NCBI GenBank assembly: GCA_965198105.1
Contig: OZ240240.1
Span: forward strand, 3,187,103 to 3,251,102
Length of the DNA stretch: 64,000 bases
Direction of reading: 5' to 3'
Origin: Dehalococcoidia bacterium
GTDB lineage: Bacteria > Chloroflexota > Dehalococcoidia > Lucifugimonadales > CBDBON01
Made by a program: the position numbers and the translations under genes. Of this stretch, positions 54,726 through 64,000 are shown one piece after another. Positions within the stretch are counted from its first letter, which is position 1. Each line of letters begins with the position of its first letter. A model generated the notes under the pieces. The model saw only the letters and a program-made list of their open reading frames with translations. It was not told the origin of the DNA and made no database searches.

Positions 54726-55070
54726 GACCCCCATCTCAATCTTCCCCCGCGGACGGGGGAAGAGGTAAGAGGGGGCAGGGGTAAGAGGGAGCGGGGGGAA
54801 CCTCTCTTGTCCCTTCCCCCGGCTTTGCGGGGGAAGGTTAGGATGGGGGCTTTCTTTGCGGCGAGGGAGAGTAAGACCCCCATCTCAGTCTTCCCCCGCG
54901 GACGGGGGAAGAGGAAGAGGGAGGACGGGGGAAGAGGAAGAGGGAGCGGGGGAAGAGGTAGGAAAAGAGGGGAGGGGCGCGTTTGCGCCCCTCCCTGTTG
55001 CTTCCTGTGGGTCCCTGTGTCCGGGGACCCCCATCTCAATCTTCCCCCGCGGACGGGGGAAGAGGTAAGA
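54726..55070. repeat. Cluster of family A/B MITE-like units (A, inverted B, degenerate A, A)
   Basis: Units start at 54726, 54811 (inverted), 54875 and 55026. This is the first host-type repeat after the island. Confidence 0.85.
54961..54994 (-). terminator. Hairpin ggaggggcgc-aaac-gcgcccctcc followed by CCTCTTTTCC (candidate terminator of the LPXTG gene)
   Basis: Perfect 10-bp GC stem about 80 nt downstream of the stop at 55072, on the minus strand. Confidence 0.45.
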
Positions 55071-55071
55071 C

Positions 55072-56682
55072 CTAGGCCCGGATCCTCCTGAGGACCAGGA
55101 CTCCGGTGGGTATCATCGCCGCGCCCGCGAGGGCGAGGAAGAGCATCAGCCAGCTCGGGGGCGTCACGCCGCCGGTCGATGGCAGCAGCGCCCTGTCGAG
55201 CGTCACCGCCACGTCGCCGAACGCGGTGATCGAGGTGGTGAGGGTCACGCTTCCGTCCTCGCCGAAGGCGGCCTCGGCTTCGAGAGCCGTCCACCCGTCG
55301 GCGGAGCCGGCGTAGACCATCACACCGCCGGCCTCGTCCAGCGCGGCGAGCGTCTCGGACCCGCCCAGCTCAGCCACCTGCTCCGCGGTCAGCGTGAGGG
55401 TGAGCGCCGAGGGGGCGTCGAGGGAGAATCCCACGATCTCGCCGCCCTGGGCGTCCCACGCGTCGACCGTGGCGCAGAGCGCCACCTCGGCGTCCTCCGG
55501 CCCGCCCTCGCAGCCCTCGACGATCCTGCCCTTGAAGTAGGCCGACTGCGCGTCGGGGGTGATCGTCAGCATGACGTTTCCGCCGTCCGACGTGACCACC
55601 GTGCTTCCGACCGCGATGGAGGCAGCGCCGCCGATCGACGCCGACGCCCGCACGTCGTTGACCGCCTCGCCCGAGAGGGCGTGGCCGCCCTCGGTGCCGG
55701 ACGCGGTGACCGTATAGGTGAAGCTATCATCTCTCAGGATCGTGAAGGTGAGCATCCCGTCCGCGCTCGCGACCTGGTCGTCGGGCAGGCTGCTCGCCAC
55801 GTAGGCGAAGCCCTCGGGCAGAGTCTCCCGGACCTGGCCGAAGCCGCCGAGGCCCGCCAGGTCGATCGTCACCACCACCTCGGCGCCGGCCTCGACCCGC
55901 GAGTCGACGGACCTGGTCGCGCTGTGCGACGCGGTCGCGGCCTGCACCGTCACCGTGGAGTCTCCTCCTATGGCCGTCTCCATCCGGCCCTCGTCCTTCG
56001 CGACGCCGGAGAACTCATGAGAGCCCAGCGTCCTGGACGCCGTCACCGTATAGGTGAAGCTCTCCTCGCCGAACAGGGAGAACCCGAGCATCTGGCCACT
56101 GACCCACGGGGGGTCGGGCAGGCTGGTCGACACGTAGCCGAAGCCGGCCGGCAGCGTCTCCACCACCTGGCCGAACTGGCCGTAGTCGGCGGCGGTGATC
56201 GTCACCGTCAGCTCGCCGCCCGCGTCGACGGTCGACGCGGAGAACGACCGGGAGGCCTCCAGCCCGGAGGCCATGACCATCACGTCCGAGTCGCCGCCGA
56301 CCTCGTTGCTGTCCAGTGCGTTGTCCTTCACGACGCCGTGGAAGGTGTGCGCGCCCAGCGCGTCGGGGGCGCGGACGGTGTAGCTGAACGAGTCCTCATC
56401 GAGCAGGGCGAAGGTCACATCCTGCCCGTCGATCACCGGCTCGTCCGCCAGCGTGGTCGACACGTAGCTGAAGCCGTCGGGCAGCGTCTCCACCACCCCG
56501 CCGAAGCCGCCCAGGTCGGCGACCTCGATCGTCACCTCCACAGTGCCGCCCGCGATCACACTGGTTGCGGAGAAGGACCTCGTCGCGCTGTGGCCTGTCG
56601 CGTCCACGGGACCCGGGCTGAGCAGCCCGGCCGCTCCCACCGCCGCAACGATCATCATCAGCGTCAACGCTCTTTTGAACAA
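55072..56682 (-). CDS. LPXTG-anchored surface protein with three tandem ~125-aa beta-sandwich-like repeats
   Basis: Signal peptide MFKRALTLMMIVAAVGAAGLL. The module SATRS...VETLP.GF.YVS...SF.YTV occurs three times. The C-terminal LPSTGG is followed by a TM segment and RRIRA. Confidence 0.8.
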   Translation of the reverse strand: MFKRALTLMMIVAAVGAAGLLSPGPVDATGHSATRSFSATSVIAGGTVEVTIEVADLGGFGGVVETLPDGFSYVSTTLADEPVIDGQDVTFALLDEDSFSYTVRAPDALGAHTFHGVVKDNALDSNEVGGDSDVMVMASGLEASRSFSASTVDAGGELTVTITAADYGQFGQVVETLPAGFGYVSTSLPDPPWVSGQMLGFSLFGEESFTYTVTASRTLGSHEFSGVAKDEGRMETAIGGDSTVTVQAATASHSATRSVDSRVEAGAEVVVTIDLAGLGGFGQVRETLPEGFAYVASSLPDDQVASADGMLTFTILRDDSFTYTVTASGTEGGHALSGEAVNDVRASASIGGAASIAVGSTVVTSDGGNVMLTITPDAQSAYFKGRIVEGCEGGPEDAEVALCATVDAWDAQGGEIVGFSLDAPSALTLTLTAEQVAELGGSETLAALDEAGGVMVYAGSADGWTALEAEAAFGEDGSVTLTTSITAFGDVAVTLDRALLPSTGGVTPPSWLMLFLALAGAAMIPTGVLVLRRIRA

Positions 56683-56755
56683 GCGTCCTCCTCCTTATTC
56701 TCCGTGAGGCCCTGGTCGTTCGCCCCGACCCGTCAAAGAGTCCCAGCCGTTCGTC

Positions 56756-56812
56756 CTGAGCCTATCAAAGGAGGGCGCCCGTTCATGGTTCGACAAGCTC
56801 ACCACGAACGGG
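56756..56812. repeat. REP family B
   Basis: ctgagcctatcaaagg...cccgttcatggttcgacaagctcaccacgaacggg. A copy lies at 4416..4484. Confidence 0.8.
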
Positions 56813-56834
56813 TTGGCCCCCCTCGATCTTTGCC

Positions 56835-59800
56835 TTATCCGCCGTTTCCGAAGTAGAGGCGGATGAGCGCCGTAACCTCACTCCTCTCGATATTGCCGGC
56901 CAGGTAGTCCTGTATCGCGGCAATGACCTCGTCTCTCTCGATGGTCCCGTCCTCGTTCAGGTCGTACGCGTTGTCCAGACCCTCGTCGGTGACCATGATC
57001 GTCACCGTGGTCATGGCGTCAACCTCGTCGGCCTTGCCGGAGGAGGCGGTGACCGTCACCGTGTAGCTCATCTGCGTCTCGTAGTCGAGCGCGGCGCTGG
57101 TCATCAGCTGGCCGGTCGCCGGGTCGATGCCGAAGGAGCCGGCGTCGTCGCCCCACAACGTGTAGGTCAGCGCGTCGCCGTCCTCGTCGGTCGCCGCGAC
57201 CGGGTCGCCGATCGCCATGCCGGCGGCCGTGTTCTCGGCCACGCTCCGGGTCATCTCCTCCGCCGCGAAGGCGGGGGCGTTGCCCGTGAGCAGTATCACC
57301 GTCGCGTCGTCGTCCGCGTCTGTGACGGTGATGTTCACCGTGATCGACGCGCTCGCCAGCGACGGGTCGGTCGCCGTCACCGTTATCGTGTAGCTCGACT
57401 TCGTCTCGTAGTCCAGCTTCACCTTAGTCTGGATCTGCCCGGAGTTGTCCACCTTGAACGATCCCGCATCGTCTCCACTCAGCGTGTAGATCAGCGGATC
57501 GCCGGGGTCGGTGGCCGCCACCGGCTCGCCCACGCCCGCATTCTTCACGTTCTCACTCACGCTCCTGGCCACGGGGTCCTCGTCGACGAACCTGGGGCGG
57601 GCGTTGGCGTTGGGCCTCTCCACCGCCGTCTGCTCCGATACCGCCGAGGCGACATCACCATCGTCCTTGCCGTCCTTCGCATCAAACGTATCATCGTCAT
57701 CAGGATCAGCGTTCAGAAGTTTGTCCGTGGCGAAGCCGTCTACGTAGCTCGCCCTCACCTGCAGCTTCTTGCCGTCGTCATCCGCCACCGGTGTGTAGGT
57801 GGACGACGTGGCGTTGTTTATAGCACAGGTGATTGAAGGTGTGCCGGTCTCGAGAGTGCAGTTCGTCACTACACTGTCGGTATCATTTATCTCGCTGTTG
57901 GCGCCGCCGTCATCAGTTGCATCCGTCGGGGTTCCATTGTCATTGACCCTTAACGTCGACACCGTCTGCTTACTTGTGGTGGAGTCGGTTTCGATGAAGG
58001 TGCCTATGGCGACATCCCCCCTGTACCACTGCCACTTGGTGTCAGTTATGTTGCCGTCAGGGTCGCTGAGCCGGGCGGTTATCGCTATGCCCTCCTGCGG
58101 CCTGCGCTGCGTCAGGGTTATCTCCCCGGGCTCTTCCTTGTTCGTCACCGTGACGAACACGTCCTTGGAGCTGCGCGCCACGCCGTCGGAGACCGTCACC
58201 GTCACCTCGTACACGTTGTCCCCATCCGCCGAGTCCATGTCCTCGAAACTGGGACCGTAGGGCGCAGGCCCCTTCCACCGGAGCGACGCCTGCGCCTGGG
58301 GCGCGAGGATCGCGGCGGTGGTATCGTCGCCGTCGTGGTTGTAGGTCGCTCCAGCAGCGATCACGAGCGGCACGATGTTAAAGCGCCCGGCGTCGACACC
58401 GCTCACCGTCCAGGTCAGGTCGTCCTCGTCAGCACCGGGGCTATCACCCTCATCTATAGCGTTGTTCCCATTGACATCTATCAGCGGATTTTCCGGATCT
58501 TCCGCATAGAAGACGGGGAGACCCTCACCAGCGTTGGCGGCACTGGGGTCGGCCGCCGGATCCAACTGAATCTGCTCCTCCGTGCTTATCCTGAAACGGT
58601 CCGCGCCAGCCGATGCGATGGGTGTATCAGCAGTCAAATCCACGTCCAGCCGCTTAATCCCAGGCGCCTCGTCCACCTTCGCGACCTTGATGGTCACCGT
58701 GACCGACTTATCCGCACCCGACGGGTCCGTAGCCGTTACCAGAACATCGTAGGCTAACGGCGTAGGAGGAGTAGTAGCCGCTGGGGCATAGAGTCCCGGC
58801 GTAGTCTCCGATTCGCTAAACGGTAATATTGAGGAGTGCACGTCAATGTTCAGGTATGCCAACTCCTCTTTACCCGCGTCACCCCTCACCGAGATCTGTC
58901 CAGTCTTGGGGTCAATCCTGAATAGGGTCGTAACGTCAACGGTAGTGTCGGCGTCGTCCCCGGTCCCGCCCACCGCATCATCATCACCAAGGTCAATGAT
59001 GACGACATCAGTGGTATCGTCGGCGTTGTCCCCGGTCCCGCCTAACGCACTATCATCACCAAGGCCAGTGACGTACGTGACCTTGCCCAGCTTGTAGAGC
59101 AGAGGGTCGTTGTCGGCATCCGTCGCCACCACCGGCGCACCTATCCCAGAACCTGCCTTCGCAGTCTCCTTCACCGTCCGGCTCACCTGGACGCCCCTCT
59201 TCGCCGCATCCTCGTCCTGAACTCCGAACGACGGCGCAAAGTTCGCCGGGGGCCTTATCTCCACCGGGAAGGCCGTCTCCGCGCTCGCAGTATCACGCTC
59301 ATCACCAAGGCCGTCACTGTAGCTGGCCGAAGCACGCAGGTAGTAGCCGTCATCCTCTTCCTGAGGCGTGTACGCCGAGGAAGTGGCTCCAACTATGTCC
59401 TCCCACTCGGACATGTCCATCGACCTCGACCACTGCCACGTCGTGGCAACGGGGTCGCCGTCCGTGTCCGAAACCTTGGCGCTTATCGACTGACCGGCCC
59501 CAGCCTGCGGCTGCAGGTCATCAATCGTCACCTTCCCGGCCTCGTCCTCGTTCGTCACCGTCACAGCCACCGACGTCGAGCCGCCAGCGGCGTTCACCAT
59601 CACCATGTACACGTTGTCGCCGTCCGCGTCACCCGCGGACTCAAAGTCCGGCGAGCTCTTGAAGCTGAGCACACCGCCCTCGGAGATCTCGAACTTCGCC
59701 GCGTCCGGCCCGCTCAACGAGAAGACGATCGGGTCACCGTCCGCGTCCGTCGCATCGAAGGTCCCCACCGGGTCCGTCCCGTTCTCCGCATACTCAACGG

Positions 59801-62420
59801 AACCGTTGTCCGCGAGCAGCGTCACCGTTGCCGGGTCGTCCGCGTCGGTGACGGTGATGTCCACCGTGATCGACGCGCTCGCCAGCGACGGGTCGGTCGC
59901 CGTCACCGTTATCGTGTAGCTCGACTTCGTCTCGTAGTCCAGCTTCACCTTAGTCTGGATCTGCCCAGAGTCGTCCACCTTGAACGATCCCGCATCGTCT
60001 CCACTCAGCGTGTAGATCAGCGGATCGCCGGGGTCGGTGGCCGCCACCGGCTCGCCCACGCCCGCATTCTTCACGTTCTCACTCACGCTCCGGGCCGCGG
60101 GATCCTCGTCAACGAACCTGGGGCGGGCGTTGGCGTTGGGCCTCTCCACCGCCGTCTGCTCCGATACCGCCGAGGCGACATCACCATCGTCCTTGCCGTC
60201 GGTCTTGTCATCAGTCGGGTCACCGGCAGTATTAAGACCTTCGGCCAGAAGTTTGTCCGTGGCGAAGCCGTCCACGTAGCTCGCCCTCACCTGCAGCTTC
60301 TTGCCGTCGTCATCCGCCACCGGTGTGTAGGTGGACGACGTGGCGTTGTTTATGGCACAGGTGCTCGAGGGCGTGCCGGTCTCGAGAGTGCAGTTCGTCA
60401 CTACTGTAGTGTCGTCAGTGTCTATTTCGCCATCTACACCGCCGCCCTGGCCTGTAGTGTCACTATCGATTCTTAACGTCGACACCCTCTGCTTACCATC
60501 GTCGTTGGGGTCGGCCTCGATGAAGGTGCCTATGAGGTCATCTCCCCTGTACCACTGCCACTTGGTGTCAGTTATGTTGCCGTCAGGGTCGCTGAGCCGG
60601 GCGGTTATCGCTATGCCCTCCTGCGGCCTGCGCTGCGTCAGGGTTATCTTCCCGGGCTCTTCCTTGTTCGTCACCGTGACGAACACGTCCTTGGAGCTGC
60701 GCGCCACGCCGTCGGAGACCGTCACCGTCACCTCGTACACGTTGTCCCCATCCGCCGAGTCCATGTCCTCGAAGCTCGGACCGAAGGGAGCGGGCCCCTT
60801 CCACCGGAGCGACGCCTGCGCCTGGGGCAGGGGGCTAGTAGCGGTGAGGGGACCGTCGCCGTCGGGGTCGGAAATGGCAGGACTGATGTCGGTTCCATCG
60901 CCGTCGGGGTCCTCGTAGGTCGCACCCGCAACGATCACGAGCGGCACGATGTTAAAGCGCTTGGCGTCGACACCGCTCACCGTCCAGGTCAGGTCGCTCT
61001 CGTCGGCGGCGGCATTCTCCGGATCGGTCGCATAGAAGACGGGGAGACCCGCACCGGCGTTGGTGGCGCTGGGGTCGGCCGCCGGATCCAACTGAATCTG
61101 CTCCTCCGTGCTTATTCTGAAGCGGTCCGCGCCAGCCGATGCGATACCTAAATCCTCACCCAAATCCGTTTCCAACCGCTTAATTCCAGGCGCCTCGTCC
61201 ACCTTCACGACCTTGATGGTCACCGTGACCGACTTATCCGCACCCGACGGGTCCGTAGCCGTTACCAGAACATCGTAGGCTAACGGCGTAGTCTCCGTAG
61301 TAGGATCATTACCACCATCAGAAATGTCATCCATTACAACTGTGGTGTTGGGGTACACGTCAATATTCAGGTATGCCAACTCCTCCTTACCCGCGTCACC
61401 CCTCACCGAGATCTGTCCAGTCTTGGCGTCAATCCCGAATAGGGTCGTAACGTCAACGGTAGTGTCGGCGTCGTCCCCGGTCCCGCCTACCGCATTATCA
61501 TCACCAAGGTCAATGATGACGACATCAGTGGTATCGTCGGCGTTGTCCCCGGTCCCGCCTACCGCATTATCATTACCAAGGTCAGTTATGACTGTGACCT
61601 TGCCCAGCTTGTAGAGCAGAGGGTCGTTGTCGGCATCCGTCGCCACCACCGGCGCACCTATCCCAGAACCTGCCTTCGCAGTCTCCTTCACCGTCCGGCT
61701 CACCTGGACGCCTCTGACCGCCGCATCCTCGTCCTGAACTCCGAACGACGGCGCAAAGTTCGCCGGGGGCCTTATCTCCACCGGGAAGGCCGTCTCCGTG
61801 CTCGCAGTGTCGCGCTCATCACCAAGGCCGTCGCTGTAGCTCGCCGCAGCACGCAGGTAGTAGCCATCATCCTCTTCCTGAGGCGTGTAGGCCGAGGAAG
61901 TGGCTCCAACTATGTCCTCCCACGAGGTCATGTCCATCGACCTGGACCACTGCCACGTCGTAGCGACGGGGTCGCCGTCCGTGTCCGAAACCTTGGCGCT
62001 TATCGACTGACCGGCCCCAGCCTGCGGCTGCAGGTCATCAATCGTCACCTTCCCGGCCTCGTCCTCGTTCGTCACCGTCACAGCCACCGACGTCGAGCCG
62101 CCAGCGGCGTTCACCGTCACCATGTACACGTTGTCGCCGTCCGCGTCACCCGCGGACTCGAAGTCCGGCGTGCTCTTGAAGCTGAGCGCACCGCCCTCGG
62201 AGATCTCGAACTTCGCCGCGTCAGGACCGCTCAACGAGAAGACGATCGCGTCGCCGTCCGGGTCCGTCGCCGAGAAGCTCGCCACCGGCTCCGTGCCGTT
62301 CTCGGGGTAGTCTATCTCCGAGTCCTGGGCGAAGACCGCAGGCGCGGCCATCACCAGTGCCAGCAGCGCGGCAACAGCCACGAAACGGGCGATTAGGCGG
62401 TTGGATATCCTATTCATCAT
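56835..62420 (-). CDS. Giant secreted cadherin-like repeat adhesin (1861 aa) with C-terminal EF-hand/dockerin-like module
   Basis: Signal peptide ...APAVFAQ. Repeated cadherin-type modules (ATDPDGD..VFSLSG.DA..F.I...G.L......DFE....Y.V.V.A......S..V.VTV.N.DE). C-terminal DLNEDGTIERDE is a canonical Ca-binding loop. Confidence 0.9.
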   Translation of the reverse strand: MMNRISNRLIARFVAVAALLALVMAAPAVFAQDSEIDYPENGTEPVASFSATDPDGDAIVFSLSGPDAAKFEISEGGALSFKSTPDFESAGDADGDNVYMVTVNAAGGSTSVAVTVTNEDEAGKVTIDDLQPQAGAGQSISAKVSDTDGDPVATTWQWSRSMDMTSWEDIVGATSSAYTPQEEDDGYYLRAAASYSDGLGDERDTASTETAFPVEIRPPANFAPSFGVQDEDAAVRGVQVSRTVKETAKAGSGIGAPVVATDADNDPLLYKLGKVTVITDLGNDNAVGGTGDNADDTTDVVIIDLGDDNAVGGTGDDADTTVDVTTLFGIDAKTGQISVRGDAGKEELAYLNIDVYPNTTVVMDDISDGGNDPTTETTPLAYDVLVTATDPSGADKSVTVTIKVVKVDEAPGIKRLETDLGEDLGIASAGADRFRISTEEQIQLDPAADPSATNAGAGLPVFYATDPENAAADESDLTWTVSGVDAKRFNIVPLVIVAGATYEDPDGDGTDISPAISDPDGDGPLTATSPLPQAQASLRWKGPAPFGPSFEDMDSADGDNVYEVTVTVSDGVARSSKDVFVTVTNKEEPGKITLTQRRPQEGIAITARLSDPDGNITDTKWQWYRGDDLIGTFIEADPNDDGKQRVSTLRIDSDTTGQGGGVDGEIDTDDTTVVTNCTLETGTPSSTCAINNATSSTYTPVADDDGKKLQVRASYVDGFATDKLLAEGLNTAGDPTDDKTDGKDDGDVASAVSEQTAVERPNANARPRFVDEDPAARSVSENVKNAGVGEPVAATDPGDPLIYTLSGDDAGSFKVDDSGQIQTKVKLDYETKSSYTITVTATDPSLASASITVDITVTDADDPATVTLLADNGSVEYAENGTDPVGTFDATDADGDPIVFSLSGPDAAKFEISEGGVLSFKSSPDFESAGDADGDNVYMVMVNAAGGSTSVAVTVTNEDEAGKVTIDDLQPQAGAGQSISAKVSDTDGDPVATTWQWSRSMDMSEWEDIVGATSSAYTPQEEDDGYYLRASASYSDGLGDERDTASAETAFPVEIRPPANFAPSFGVQDEDAAKRGVQVSRTVKETAKAGSGIGAPVVATDADNDPLLYKLGKVTYVTGLGDDSALGGTGDNADDTTDVVIIDLGDDDAVGGTGDDADTTVDVTTLFRIDPKTGQISVRGDAGKEELAYLNIDVHSSILPFSESETTPGLYAPAATTPPTPLAYDVLVTATDPSGADKSVTVTIKVAKVDEAPGIKRLDVDLTADTPIASAGADRFRISTEEQIQLDPAADPSAANAGEGLPVFYAEDPENPLIDVNGNNAIDEGDSPGADEDDLTWTVSGVDAGRFNIVPLVIAAGATYNHDGDDTTAAILAPQAQASLRWKGPAPYGPSFEDMDSADGDNVYEVTVTVSDGVARSSKDVFVTVTNKEEPGEITLTQRRPQEGIAITARLSDPDGNITDTKWQWYRGDVAIGTFIETDSTTSKQTVSTLRVNDNGTPTDATDDGGANSEINDTDSVVTNCTLETGTPSITCAINNATSSTYTPVADDDGKKLQVRASYVDGFATDKLLNADPDDDDTFDAKDGKDDGDVASAVSEQTAVERPNANARPRFVDEDPVARSVSENVKNAGVGEPVAATDPGDPLIYTLSGDDAGSFKVDNSGQIQTKVKLDYETKSSYTITVTATDPSLASASITVNITVTDADDDATVILLTGNAPAFAAEEMTRSVAENTAAGMAIGDPVAATDEDGDALTYTLWGDDAGSFGIDPATGQLMTSAALDYETQMSYTVTVTASSGKADEVDAMTTVTIMVTDEGLDNAYDLNEDGTIERDEVIAAIQDYLAGNIERSEVTALIRLYFGNGG
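57279..62321. repeat. Intragenic tandem duplication, 2 units of 2523 and 2520 bp
   Basis: Unit boundaries are at SVEYAENGT (59801) and SEIDYPENGT (62321). Shadow ORF pairs recur at offsets of 2478-2532 bp, for example 57511/60037, 57799/60331 and 58846/61324. Confidence 0.9.
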
Positions 62421-62805: not shown

Positions 62806-62880
62806 GCCGGCATAATATGGGGCGCGAAAGGCAAAGTGTCAACTCCATGCGACTCAGACTGATGCACTACCCCGGAGAAA

Positions 62881-63028
62881 GACCCCCATCTCAATCTTCC
62901 CCCGCGGACGGGGGAAGAGGTAAGAGGCGCGGCGGGGGAGAGGGCGCGGCGGAACCGGGAGGCAAGAGGCGGCGGCGGAACCTTCTTTCCCTTCCCCCGG
63001 CTCGGCGGGAGAAGGTCAGGATGGGGGC
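62881..63028. repeat. About 148-bp MITE-like element (A unit ... inverted B unit)
   Basis: Nearly the same element, including its internal sequence, occurs at 63699..63852. Confidence 0.85.
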
Positions 63029-63074
63029 TCTTCGACGCGGCCCGGCAGGGAACCCCGCGGATGGGGGAGGGAAA

Positions 63075-63120
63075 GACCCCCATCTCAATCTTCCCCCGCG
63101 GACGAGGGAAGAGGTAAGAG
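63075..63120. repeat. Solo family A unit
   Basis: gacccccatctcaatcttcccccgcggacgagggaagaggtaagag. One stem mismatch. Confidence 0.8.
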
Positions 63121-63657: not shown

Positions 63658-63698
63658 GTCTGGGGCATGTTACCACGGACGTCGGCGGGGAAGAGGGG

Positions 63699-63852
63699 GA
63701 CCCCCATCTCAATCTTCCCCCGGGGACGGGGGAAGAGGTAGGAGAGCGGCGGGGGAGAGGCGGGAGGGCACGGCGGAACCGGGAGGCAAGAGGCGGCGGG
63801 GGAACCTTCTTTCCCTTCCCCCGGCTCGGCGGGGGAAGGTCAGGATGGGGGC
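63699..63852. repeat. About 154-bp MITE-like element (A unit ... inverted B unit)
   Basis: Sister copy of 62881..63028. Its right end provides the stop codon of the DUF559-like gene. Confidence 0.85.
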
Positions 63853-64000
63853 TCTTCCAGGGCCTGGCGTATTACCTCGGCGACGCTTCCCACGTCGCGC
63901 AGGACGTCGTTGTTCCAGAAGCGCAGGACCCTGTAGCCCTGTGACCGGAGCCACTTCGTCCGGTCGTGGTCGTAGCTGGCCTGCGCGGCGCCGTGCTGTC
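63840..64000 (-). CDS. DUF559 (Vsr-like endonuclease fold) domain protein; only the 3' end is in the window
   Basis: Manual translation: ...SYDHDRTKWLRSQGYRVLRFWNNDVLRDVGSVAEVIRQALEEPPS*. The frame is open to the window edge. Confidence 0.7.
   Translation of the reverse strand, partial: QHGAAQASYDHDRTKWLRSQGYRVLRFWNNDVLRDVGSVAEVIRQALEEPPS

Follow-up and report, generated by a model that had tools for sequence, protein, structure and literature searches.

Concerted evolution of two tandem 2.5 kb units within a cadherin-like adhesin gene of a Dehalococcoidia bacterium

The window analysed here is a stretch of 64,000 nucleotides (nt) and covers positions 3,187,103-3,251,102 of the 3.645 Mb genome of a Dehalococcoidia bacterium (assembly GCA_965198105.1, contig OZ240240.1), a single closed contig of ~65% G+C (guanine plus cytosine) without Ns. 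Its reverse strand carries the gene of a cadherin-like adhesin, followed by the gene of a predicted sortase-type wall anchor (Table 1). Most of the adhesin consists of two tandem units, which are nearly the same over long tracts, silent sites included, and differ in nine discrete patches. This mosaic and its origin are the subject of the present analysis. A first-pass annotation of the window had already described the protein as being made mostly of two units of about 840 residues; its coordinates proved right to a few bases, and all the peptides quoted in it are found in the sequence as given.

Table 1. Features of the adhesin locus. Positions refer to the window; residue numbers of patches are those of the unit 1 copy, and model loops are those of the AlphaFold2 model of unit 1.
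Feature	Positions	Strand	Description	Basis
Adhesin gene	56835..62420	-	1861 residues: signal peptide, two 839-residue units, one more cadherin domain, EF-hand-like tail	open reading frame (ORF) list and translation
Signal peptide	62328..62420	-	Sec type, about residues 1-31 (MMNRISNRLIARFVAVAALLALVMAAPAVFA/QD)	read from sequence
Unit 1	59796..62312	-	residues 37-875, about six beta-sandwich domains	unit alignment, AlphaFold2, Foldseek
Unit 2	57279..59795	-	residues 876-1714, 87% identical to unit 1 (protein)	unit alignment
C-terminal tail	56838..56978	-	EF-hand-like calcium loop (DLNEDGTIERDE), then two helices	EF-hand Pfam models
Patch 1	62247..62312	-	residues 37-58; 5' edge of unit; partner 59730-59795	
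Patch 2	61560..61592	-	residues 277-287, VITDLGNDNAV; partner 59043-59075, YVTGLGDDSAL; start of low-confidence model loop 242-284	
Patch 3	61290..61355	-	residues 356-377, YPNTTVVMDDISDGGNDPTTET; partner 58764-58838, HSSILPFSESETTPGLYAPAATTPP; model loop 323-342, pLDDT <50	
Patch 4	61146..61172	-	residues 417-425; partner 58620-58646	
Patch 5	60996..61028	-	residues 465-475; partner 58422-58502 with 16-residue insertion (PLIDVNGNNAIDEGDS)	
Patch 6	60828..60932	-	residues 497-531; 15 residues longer than partner 58302-58358; model loops 466-495, pLDDT <50	
Patch 7	60405..60539	-	residues 628-672; long loop in second WQW-motif Ig domain; partner 57873-58013; model loop 596-638, pLDDT <50	
Patch 8	60198..60245	-	residues 726-741; partner 57675-57713; model loop 686-706	
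Patch 9	59808..59834	-	residues 863-871; 3' edge of unit; partner 57282-57308	
Nested 72-nt duplication, unit 1	61464-61592			
Nested 72-nt duplication, unit 2	58947-59071			
Anchor gene	55072..56682	-	536 residues: signal peptide, three ~110-residue Ig-like modules, LPSTG motif, membrane helix, RRIRA tail	translation
3' block common with P3610 locus	55071..57665	-	96.1% over 2599 nt, 87 mismatches, almost all at adhesin end	
Antisense ORF	55681-56856	+	391 residues	
Hairpin repeats (~58 nt)	55014-55071, 62869-62926, 63063-63120, 63687-63744			
Direct repeats (99 nt)	62935-63033, 63759-63857			

The adhesin matches the Pfam Cadherin model PF00028 in three stretches with 120.5 bits (curated cut-off 28.8; expectation value, E, 4.1e-35), and its phmmer matches among solved structures are CELSR1, protocadherin-15 and cadherin-23. 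Calcium-site motifs of the DxNDxP type, e.g. DADNDPLLY, are seen in the sequence, and two immunoglobulin (Ig) domains with a WQW motif match the SCAB-Ig and AIR9-A9 models. For unit 1, AlphaFold2 gives a model with a mean pLDDT (predicted local distance difference test score) of 67.5, and Foldseek aligns it as a chain of cadherin-type beta-sandwiches with protocadherin ectodomains (E 2e-21); the global template modelling (TM) scores of these matches are low (0.18-0.22) because the inter-domain geometry is not predicted. The C-terminal tail has a single calcium loop and matches the EF-hand Pfam models at E 3.5e-4, under their cut-offs. We infer that the protein is a secreted calcium-dependent adhesin, kept at the cell surface via an LPXTG-anchored partner.

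Smaller repetitions are present inside the units. A three-domain block (cadherin-like, WQW-motif Ig, cadherin) seems to have been duplicated at an earlier time to give each unit: FESAGDADGDNVYMVTV with LQPQAG...WQWSRS in the first half is echoed by FEDMDSADGDNVYEVTV with RRPQEG...WQWYRG in the second. In both units, moreover, a long loop contains a nested 72-nt tandem duplication (24 residues, xDLGDDNAVGGTGDxADTTxDV), whose copies are 93% identical inside unit 1; among the relatives inspected, only P0006 has this DLGDD-repeat loop as well. The long ORFs antisense to the adhesin and anchor genes, which besides the one listed in Table 1 include several of 100-195 residues, have no family match and are probably artefacts of the high G+C content.

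The tandem duplication is confirmed as real. When the gene is compared with itself, two collinear stretches match (1309 nt at 91.6% and 1040 nt at 90.5%) with an offset of ~2.52 kb, and direct repeats of 290-300 nt recur at a spacing of 2517-2532 nt. The units differ at ~10% of nucleotides and by several indels, yet the reading frame is kept over 5.6 kb. When unit 1 is compared with unit 2 codon by codon (863 alignment columns), 648 columns are identical, 61 synonymous, 103 non-synonymous, and 51 contain a gap. The contrast drawn in the first-pass annotation, between long identical tracts and discrete patches that are different, is upheld by the nucleotide alignment and by shuffling, both of which show clustering and not an even spread: the longest identical nucleotide run between the units is 150 nt, whereas 2000 shuffles gave 60 nt on average and 124 nt at most. 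The nine patches, delimited by a simple segmentation, take up 206 of the 863 columns (24%) and contain 82 of the 103 non-synonymous codons and all 51 gap columns. Seven of them are indel-rich interior loops and two are unit edges.

The silent sites follow the same mosaic. Among codons for the same residue in both units, a silent difference is found in 22.5% of those adjacent to a patch, in 2.3% of those 11-20 codons away, and in none beyond 20 codons (permutation p < 1e-4). Constraint on the protein alone would spread silent differences evenly, so the clustering points to homogenisation of the DNA. Regional synonymous and non-synonymous divergences (dS and dN, Nei-Gojobori estimates) are 0.084 and 0.017 in the tracts (dN/dS 0.20, transitions:transversions 43:20), where dS is fairly uniform (0.06-0.16), and 0.63 and 0.47 in the patches (interior dS 0.72; dN/dS 0.74, transitions:transversions 73:97). 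Tract mismatches are transition-rich, as expected of young point mutations, and patch mismatches look saturated. By the regional dS and the substitution pattern, the tracts are ~7-8 times younger than the patches, which are of about the same age as the paralogs described below, whose units differ from one gene to another at a dS of about 0.6.

A search of the genome with one unit returned four further genes of the same two-unit layout, giving five paralogs in total. These are P3610 (3,607,883-3,613,183; 1763 residues), P2993 (2,991,298-2,996,205; 1632 residues), P257 (1495 residues) and P178 (1433 residues), and their own two units are 92, 74, 78 and 74% identical, respectively. Between genes of this genome the units are 57-66% identical (~40% against the P178/P257 pair), paralog-specific indels and insertions occur in both units of a gene, and the family members have conserved ends and variable middles. 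The signal peptide of the adhesin is almost the same in P3610 and P2993. The units were analysed in 20 complete two-unit proteins, comprising the five paralogs and 15 proteins from related Dehalococcoidia assemblies. Units of one protein are 73-99% identical, whereas those of different proteins are 40-66% identical, and in a maximum-likelihood tree of the 40 units a protein's own two units are sisters in 16 of the 20 cases. When 40 related species-representative genomes were searched, the family was found only in the same-genus genome; the two-unit adhesin family is restricted to this lineage. Three proteins of other assemblies (P0051, P0063 and P0075, on contigs of 15-24 kb) end a few hundred residues into unit 2 with ends that look out of frame, the cause being an assembly or frameshift error at the repeat unless the genes are true pseudogenes.

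In two cross-genome pairs, P0002/P0012 and P0010/P0011, the grouping is by position (unit 1 with unit 1, unit 2 with unit 2) and strongly supported. The two-unit state was therefore inherited across genome divergence, and the usual similarity within a gene is secondary. The sole alternative, independent duplication in at least 16 lineages with identical boundaries, is contradicted by the site-pattern test: where both proteins differ between their units, positional sites outnumber crossed ones by 384 to 106 overall, and by 25 to 3 in the interior columns of independent sister pairs. Single loops behave in the same way. After DNDPLLY, unit 2 of P0022 has TDGDTDLTTDGIQHENDD and unit 2 of P0024 has EDGDTDLTTDGIQHENDD, with a different sequence shared by both unit 1 copies, and the long Ig-domain loop of P0004/P0008 groups by position likewise. 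In the adhesin of the window, unit 2 starts with 22 residues that share 86% identity with the unit 2 sequences of both P3610 and P2993 and only 67% with its own unit 1, and for the edge patch of unit 1 the nearest sequence is that of unit 1 in P2993, so that this gene's edge patch groups by position. A tree built from only the 45 N-terminal residues of each unit was uninformative, the stretch being too short and partly out of register.

The interior patches are located on predicted loops. They coincide with segments of the unit 1 model of pLDDT <50 (odds ratio 21.6, p 2.5e-51), and their residues also with those outside regular secondary structure. In 11 of 19 relatives, the differences between unit 1 and unit 2 fall in these same columns of the alignment (odds ratios 3-21); in recently homogenised relatives the units are identical at the patch columns too. 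The loop of patch 7 is also different between the units of P3610 and of P0004/P0008, and the junction sequence of patch 9 (TLLADNG.V in unit 1, ILLTGNAPAF in unit 2) is common to the paralogs. Loop status alone is insufficient for divergence, since a 33-residue low-confidence loop (model residues 252-284, with the 24-residue DLGDDNAVGG repeat) is alike in both units. Two other sources of the patches were considered and rejected. Compensated frameshifts leave only a faint residual similarity in patch 3, the other patches being plain substitutions and indels, and a tblastn search of every patch against the genome gave no donor among the other paralogs for the interior ones.

The patches had been ascribed in the first-pass annotation to a diversification of surface loops. 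Their placement on predicted loops is in agreement with this, but an active or adaptive diversification is not demonstrated: dN/dS in the patches is below 1, their silent divergence is at the level of paralogs, and the same loops of relatives group by position across proteins. The loops look like old sequence that escaped homogenisation rather than newly diversified sequence.

The unit DNA was compared in four relatives. In P0024 the units have the same nucleotides over about 250 codons in a row and are diverged in the rest (overall dS 0.19), while those of P0005 are identical over >600 codons, with almost all differences in the first ~30 codons of the unit; the pattern in P0027 is like that in P0005, and the units of P0006 are diverged throughout (dS 0.37). 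An accumulation of divergence at the unit edges, where homology ends, is the pattern expected of conversion between tandem duplicates. The hallmarks of concerted evolution, i.e. likeness within the gene, silent-site mosaic tracts with sharp boundaries, and a duplication older than the divergence of the genes, are all found.

The explanation we favour, with a probability of roughly three in four, is that an ancestral two-unit adhesin has been under repeated partial gene conversion between its halves, from which the indel-rich loops and the unit edges escape. The ancestral adhesin would already have had two units, each of ~six cadherin/Ig-like domains, and the duplication would be old. Homologous recombination between the units of the same gene would repeatedly copy stretches of one onto the other, in non-reciprocal, partial tracts, and the beta-sandwich cores would in this way remain nearly identical, silent sites included. 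Nine stretches would have missed the most recent rounds and retained their old unit-specific sequence; the loops likely escape because divergence and length differences block heteroduplex formation, and selection for unit-specific loops may contribute. The same process would operate throughout the family and also between loci, as with the last ~150 nt of this gene and the anchor gene, which have their counterpart at a locus 360 kb away. Of the 'ongoing gene conversion between units' proposed in the earlier reading of this DNA, conversion is well supported (silent clustering, dS of 0.084 vs 0.63, family-wide concerted evolution, and the partly nucleotide-identical tracts of relatives). The word 'ongoing' suits only the relatives, where conversion is demonstrably current, as in this gene it was not very recent.

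Several observations weigh against this explanation. The tract dS of 0.084 dates the last homogenisation in this gene as not recent. The dS of the patches may be inflated, as codon homology is uncertain inside indel-rich stretches, and at the mean pLDDT of the model 'loop' partly means 'not confidently modelled'. The gene has no close orthologue in the databases, and positional retention in its interior patches is weak and argued mainly by analogy with relatives; a four-way comparison with P0006, the sole relative that shares the DLGDD-repeat loop, gives a weak positional signal for them. Among 21 complete family members, P0086 has a single unit. Finally, P0005 and P0034 are identical over the whole unit, loops included, and re-duplication by unequal crossing-over could produce the same result.

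A single recent tandem duplication in the lineage of this gene (age ~dS 0.08), with no conversion and with loops that diverged fast through indels, slippage and relaxed constraint, is unlikely. It would account for the fairly uniform dS of the tracts, but not for a silent divergence of 0.63-0.72 in the patches, which is at paralog level and 7-8 times the tract value. The indel-rich, low-complexity, D/T/G-rich character of the patches suits such a history, as do their dN/dS, which fits relaxed constraint, and the absence from the genome of a donor for the interior ones; the 33-residue loop that is conserved between the units does not. Moreover, the layout and its boundaries are the same in all four other paralogs and in 15 relatives, and the positional signal is kept across proteins and at this gene's own unit edge.

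Homogenisation mainly by unequal crossing-over, in which one unit is lost and the survivor re-duplicated, is also improbable as the general mode; partial tracts would then be minor, and the patches would have diverged since the last cycle. Whole-unit replacement would erase the position-specific sequence which edges and loops keep across proteins, and it fits neither the partial identical tracts inside the units of P0024 nor the mosaic of silent divergence in this gene. The whole-unit nucleotide identity of P0005, P0027 and P0034, loops included, and the single-unit relative P0086 are what such cycles would leave behind, but the unit number is two in 20 of the 21 complete family members.

We regard it as very improbable that the locus is an assembly artefact, with another true unit number or with strain variants joined in tandem. 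Assembly is difficult across repeats as long as 2.5 kb, and P0051, P0063 and P0075, on short contigs, end inside unit 2 with garbled ends; the present genome, however, is one contig without Ns, its units differ by 10% of nucleotides and several indels and stay in frame over 5.6 kb, and the architecture recurs in four other genes here and in 15 complete proteins of other assemblies. It is hardly credible that the patches are targets of programmed hypervariation (by a diversity-generating retroelement, a candidate we rejected, or by recombinase cassette exchange with a tyrosine integrase), for although such an integrase is found at P3610, at P2993 (interrupted) and at two relatives' genes, and the family has conserved ends and variable middles, an RVT_1 search of the genome gave no reverse transcriptase match, adenine is not over-represented among the mismatches (25% from each unit), the integrase is absent at this locus and at two relatives' loci, and the genome holds no donor copies of the interior patches.

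The protein encoded downstream of the adhesin ends in LPSTGG, a hydrophobic helix and RRIRA, a C-terminus of the LPXTG sortase-anchor type that is kept in relatives, and from its sequence it is predicted to be a sortase-type wall anchor. The genome has one sortase gene (PF04203, 67.5 bits). The modules of the anchor match Ig-like and macroglobulin folds, and its AlphaFold2 model (pLDDT 76) has its best Foldseek match in the Ig-like domains of the PrgB stalk (E 4e-16); a sequence search of the PDB was without matches. Each of the three loci in the closer paralog group has the anchor gene downstream of the adhesin gene, and the same order is found in relatives. A pairing of tail and anchor recurs outside the two-unit family: another cadherin-repeat protein, of 1735 residues (genome 2,100,632-2,105,911), ends in a similar EF-hand-like tail, and the gene after it (genome 2,107,286-2,107,711) encodes modules 45-57% identical to those of the anchor.

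This locus and that of P3610 encode anchor proteins of identical sequence, and the similarity extends over the 3' block of Table 1. Within this block, ~1.9 kb from 55071 to ~56990 have at most two mismatches to genome positions 3,613,030-3,614,947, and the longest exact match is 1006 nt. This part comprises the last ~150 nt of the adhesin gene, the intergenic spacer and the whole anchor gene. Beyond it the identity drops stepwise into the adhesin body, and the two adhesin bodies differ at a dS of about 0.6. The ~1.9 kb block results from recent conversion or copying between two loci that lie 360 kb apart.

At some loci of the family a tyrosine integrase gene is situated divergently upstream of the adhesin gene. 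The integrase at P3610 has 432 residues (Arm-DNA-bind_3, Phage_int_M and Phage_integrase; genome 3,606,434-3,607,729), that upstream of P2993 (genome 2,988,123-2,991,133) is split by ~1.7 kb of inserted DNA, and two relatives' genes have one as well (L012:2540-3838 and L013:2562-3857). Transposase genes of the IS21, DDE_Tnp_1 and Mu types lie around the integrase-bearing loci, and the trio of integrase, adhesin and anchor may be a mobile module. Around the present locus, copies of a dispersed intergenic hairpin repeat of ~58 nt (CTTCCCCCG/CGGGGGAAG) flank the adhesin/anchor pair. Its core, CCCCCATCTCAATCTTCCCCC, occurs in 216 copies on both strands of the genome (at most two mismatches), and the repeat looks like a repetitive extragenic palindromic (REP) sequence or a miniature inverted-repeat transposable element (MITE). 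The repeat-rich region upstream of the adhesin also contains a 99-nt direct repeat in two copies, which lie 824 nt apart and share 95% identity.

A bolder proposal, which we consider rather unlikely, is that the fixed number of two super-units is itself selected. Recombination would match the scaffolds while the loops are kept different for longer than the paralogs have existed, giving a bivalent adhesin with two loop-encoded specificities on a symmetric stalk; the module of integrase, adhesin and LPXTG anchor would then be a mobile adhesion cassette that has been copied to several places in the genome, with nearly identical ends and a variable middle, exchanged or diversified between copies.

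The locus shows concerted evolution within one reading frame in an unusually clear and large form (2.5 kb, six domains, two copies), and recombination is seen to shape the surface-protein repertoire of an uncultured Dehalococcoidia lineage. The patches mark the adhesin loops that are free to differ, which makes them obvious candidates for ligand contact. In practical terms, such genes are likely to break short-read or low-coverage assemblies, as annotators and assemblers should expect, and the identity of repeats should not be taken as the age of a duplication.

With the ectodomains of animal cadherins and protocadherins the adhesin shares a Pfam Cadherin match above the cut-off, motifs of the DxNDxP type and the Foldseek similarity given above. 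It differs from them in being bacterial and secreted, with interleaved WQW-motif Ig domains, an EF-hand-like tail and no transmembrane or cytoplasmic part. The C-terminal module of calcium loop and helices, next to a wall-anchored protein of repeated beta-sandwiches, recalls the dockerin-cohesin pairs of the cellulosome type. That pairing was nevertheless rejected for the two proteins: Dockerin_1 (PF00404) matches nowhere in the genome at E <= 0.01, the tail has one calcium loop, and no cohesin is among the top 50 Foldseek matches of the anchor. Docking of the adhesin tail on the anchored partner is therefore a conjecture.

Concerted evolution of duplicated bacterial genes has been described for release factors, by gene conversion (PMC4530459), and for antigen gene families (PMC4534519). 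As far as the available portions of these two reports go, the present case is alike in that duplicates of one lineage are closer than orthologues, in the mosaic tracts, and in conversion between dispersed loci (here the ~1.9 kb block). It is different in that the partners are the two halves of one ORF, which makes the protein internally symmetric, and in that the tblastn search of the patches against the genome gives no evidence of silent donor cassettes driving antigenic variation.

The closest parallels are the Periscope Proteins (Sgo_0707, SasG, Rib/alpha C) and the streptococcal M protein, in which intragenic tandem repeats recombine homologously (PMC8201768, PMC9704523). Within one Periscope gene the DNA that encodes the repeats is very similar, for which homologous recombination among them has been proposed as the mechanism (PMC9704523); the corresponding identity of the unit DNA is ~90% in this gene and nearly 100% in P0005, P0027 and P0034. 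Both systems consist of surface proteins of tandem Ig-like modules with an LPXTG-type anchor, which here is on the neighbouring gene. The unit here, however, is a 2.5 kb block of ~six different domains and not a single domain, 20 of the 21 complete relatives have exactly two such units whereas Periscope repeats vary in number between strains, the identity is a mosaic with retained unit-specific loops, and the host is an uncultured member of the Dehalococcoidia (Chloroflexota). Recombination-driven likeness of intragenic repeats in bacterial surface proteins is already well known (PMC8201768, PMC9704523). What is new is the size and composite nature of the unit, the copy number fixed at two across a diversified family, and the retained unit-specific loops. 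The locus is a clear example of concerted evolution in a family of bacterial adhesins, though not one without precedent.

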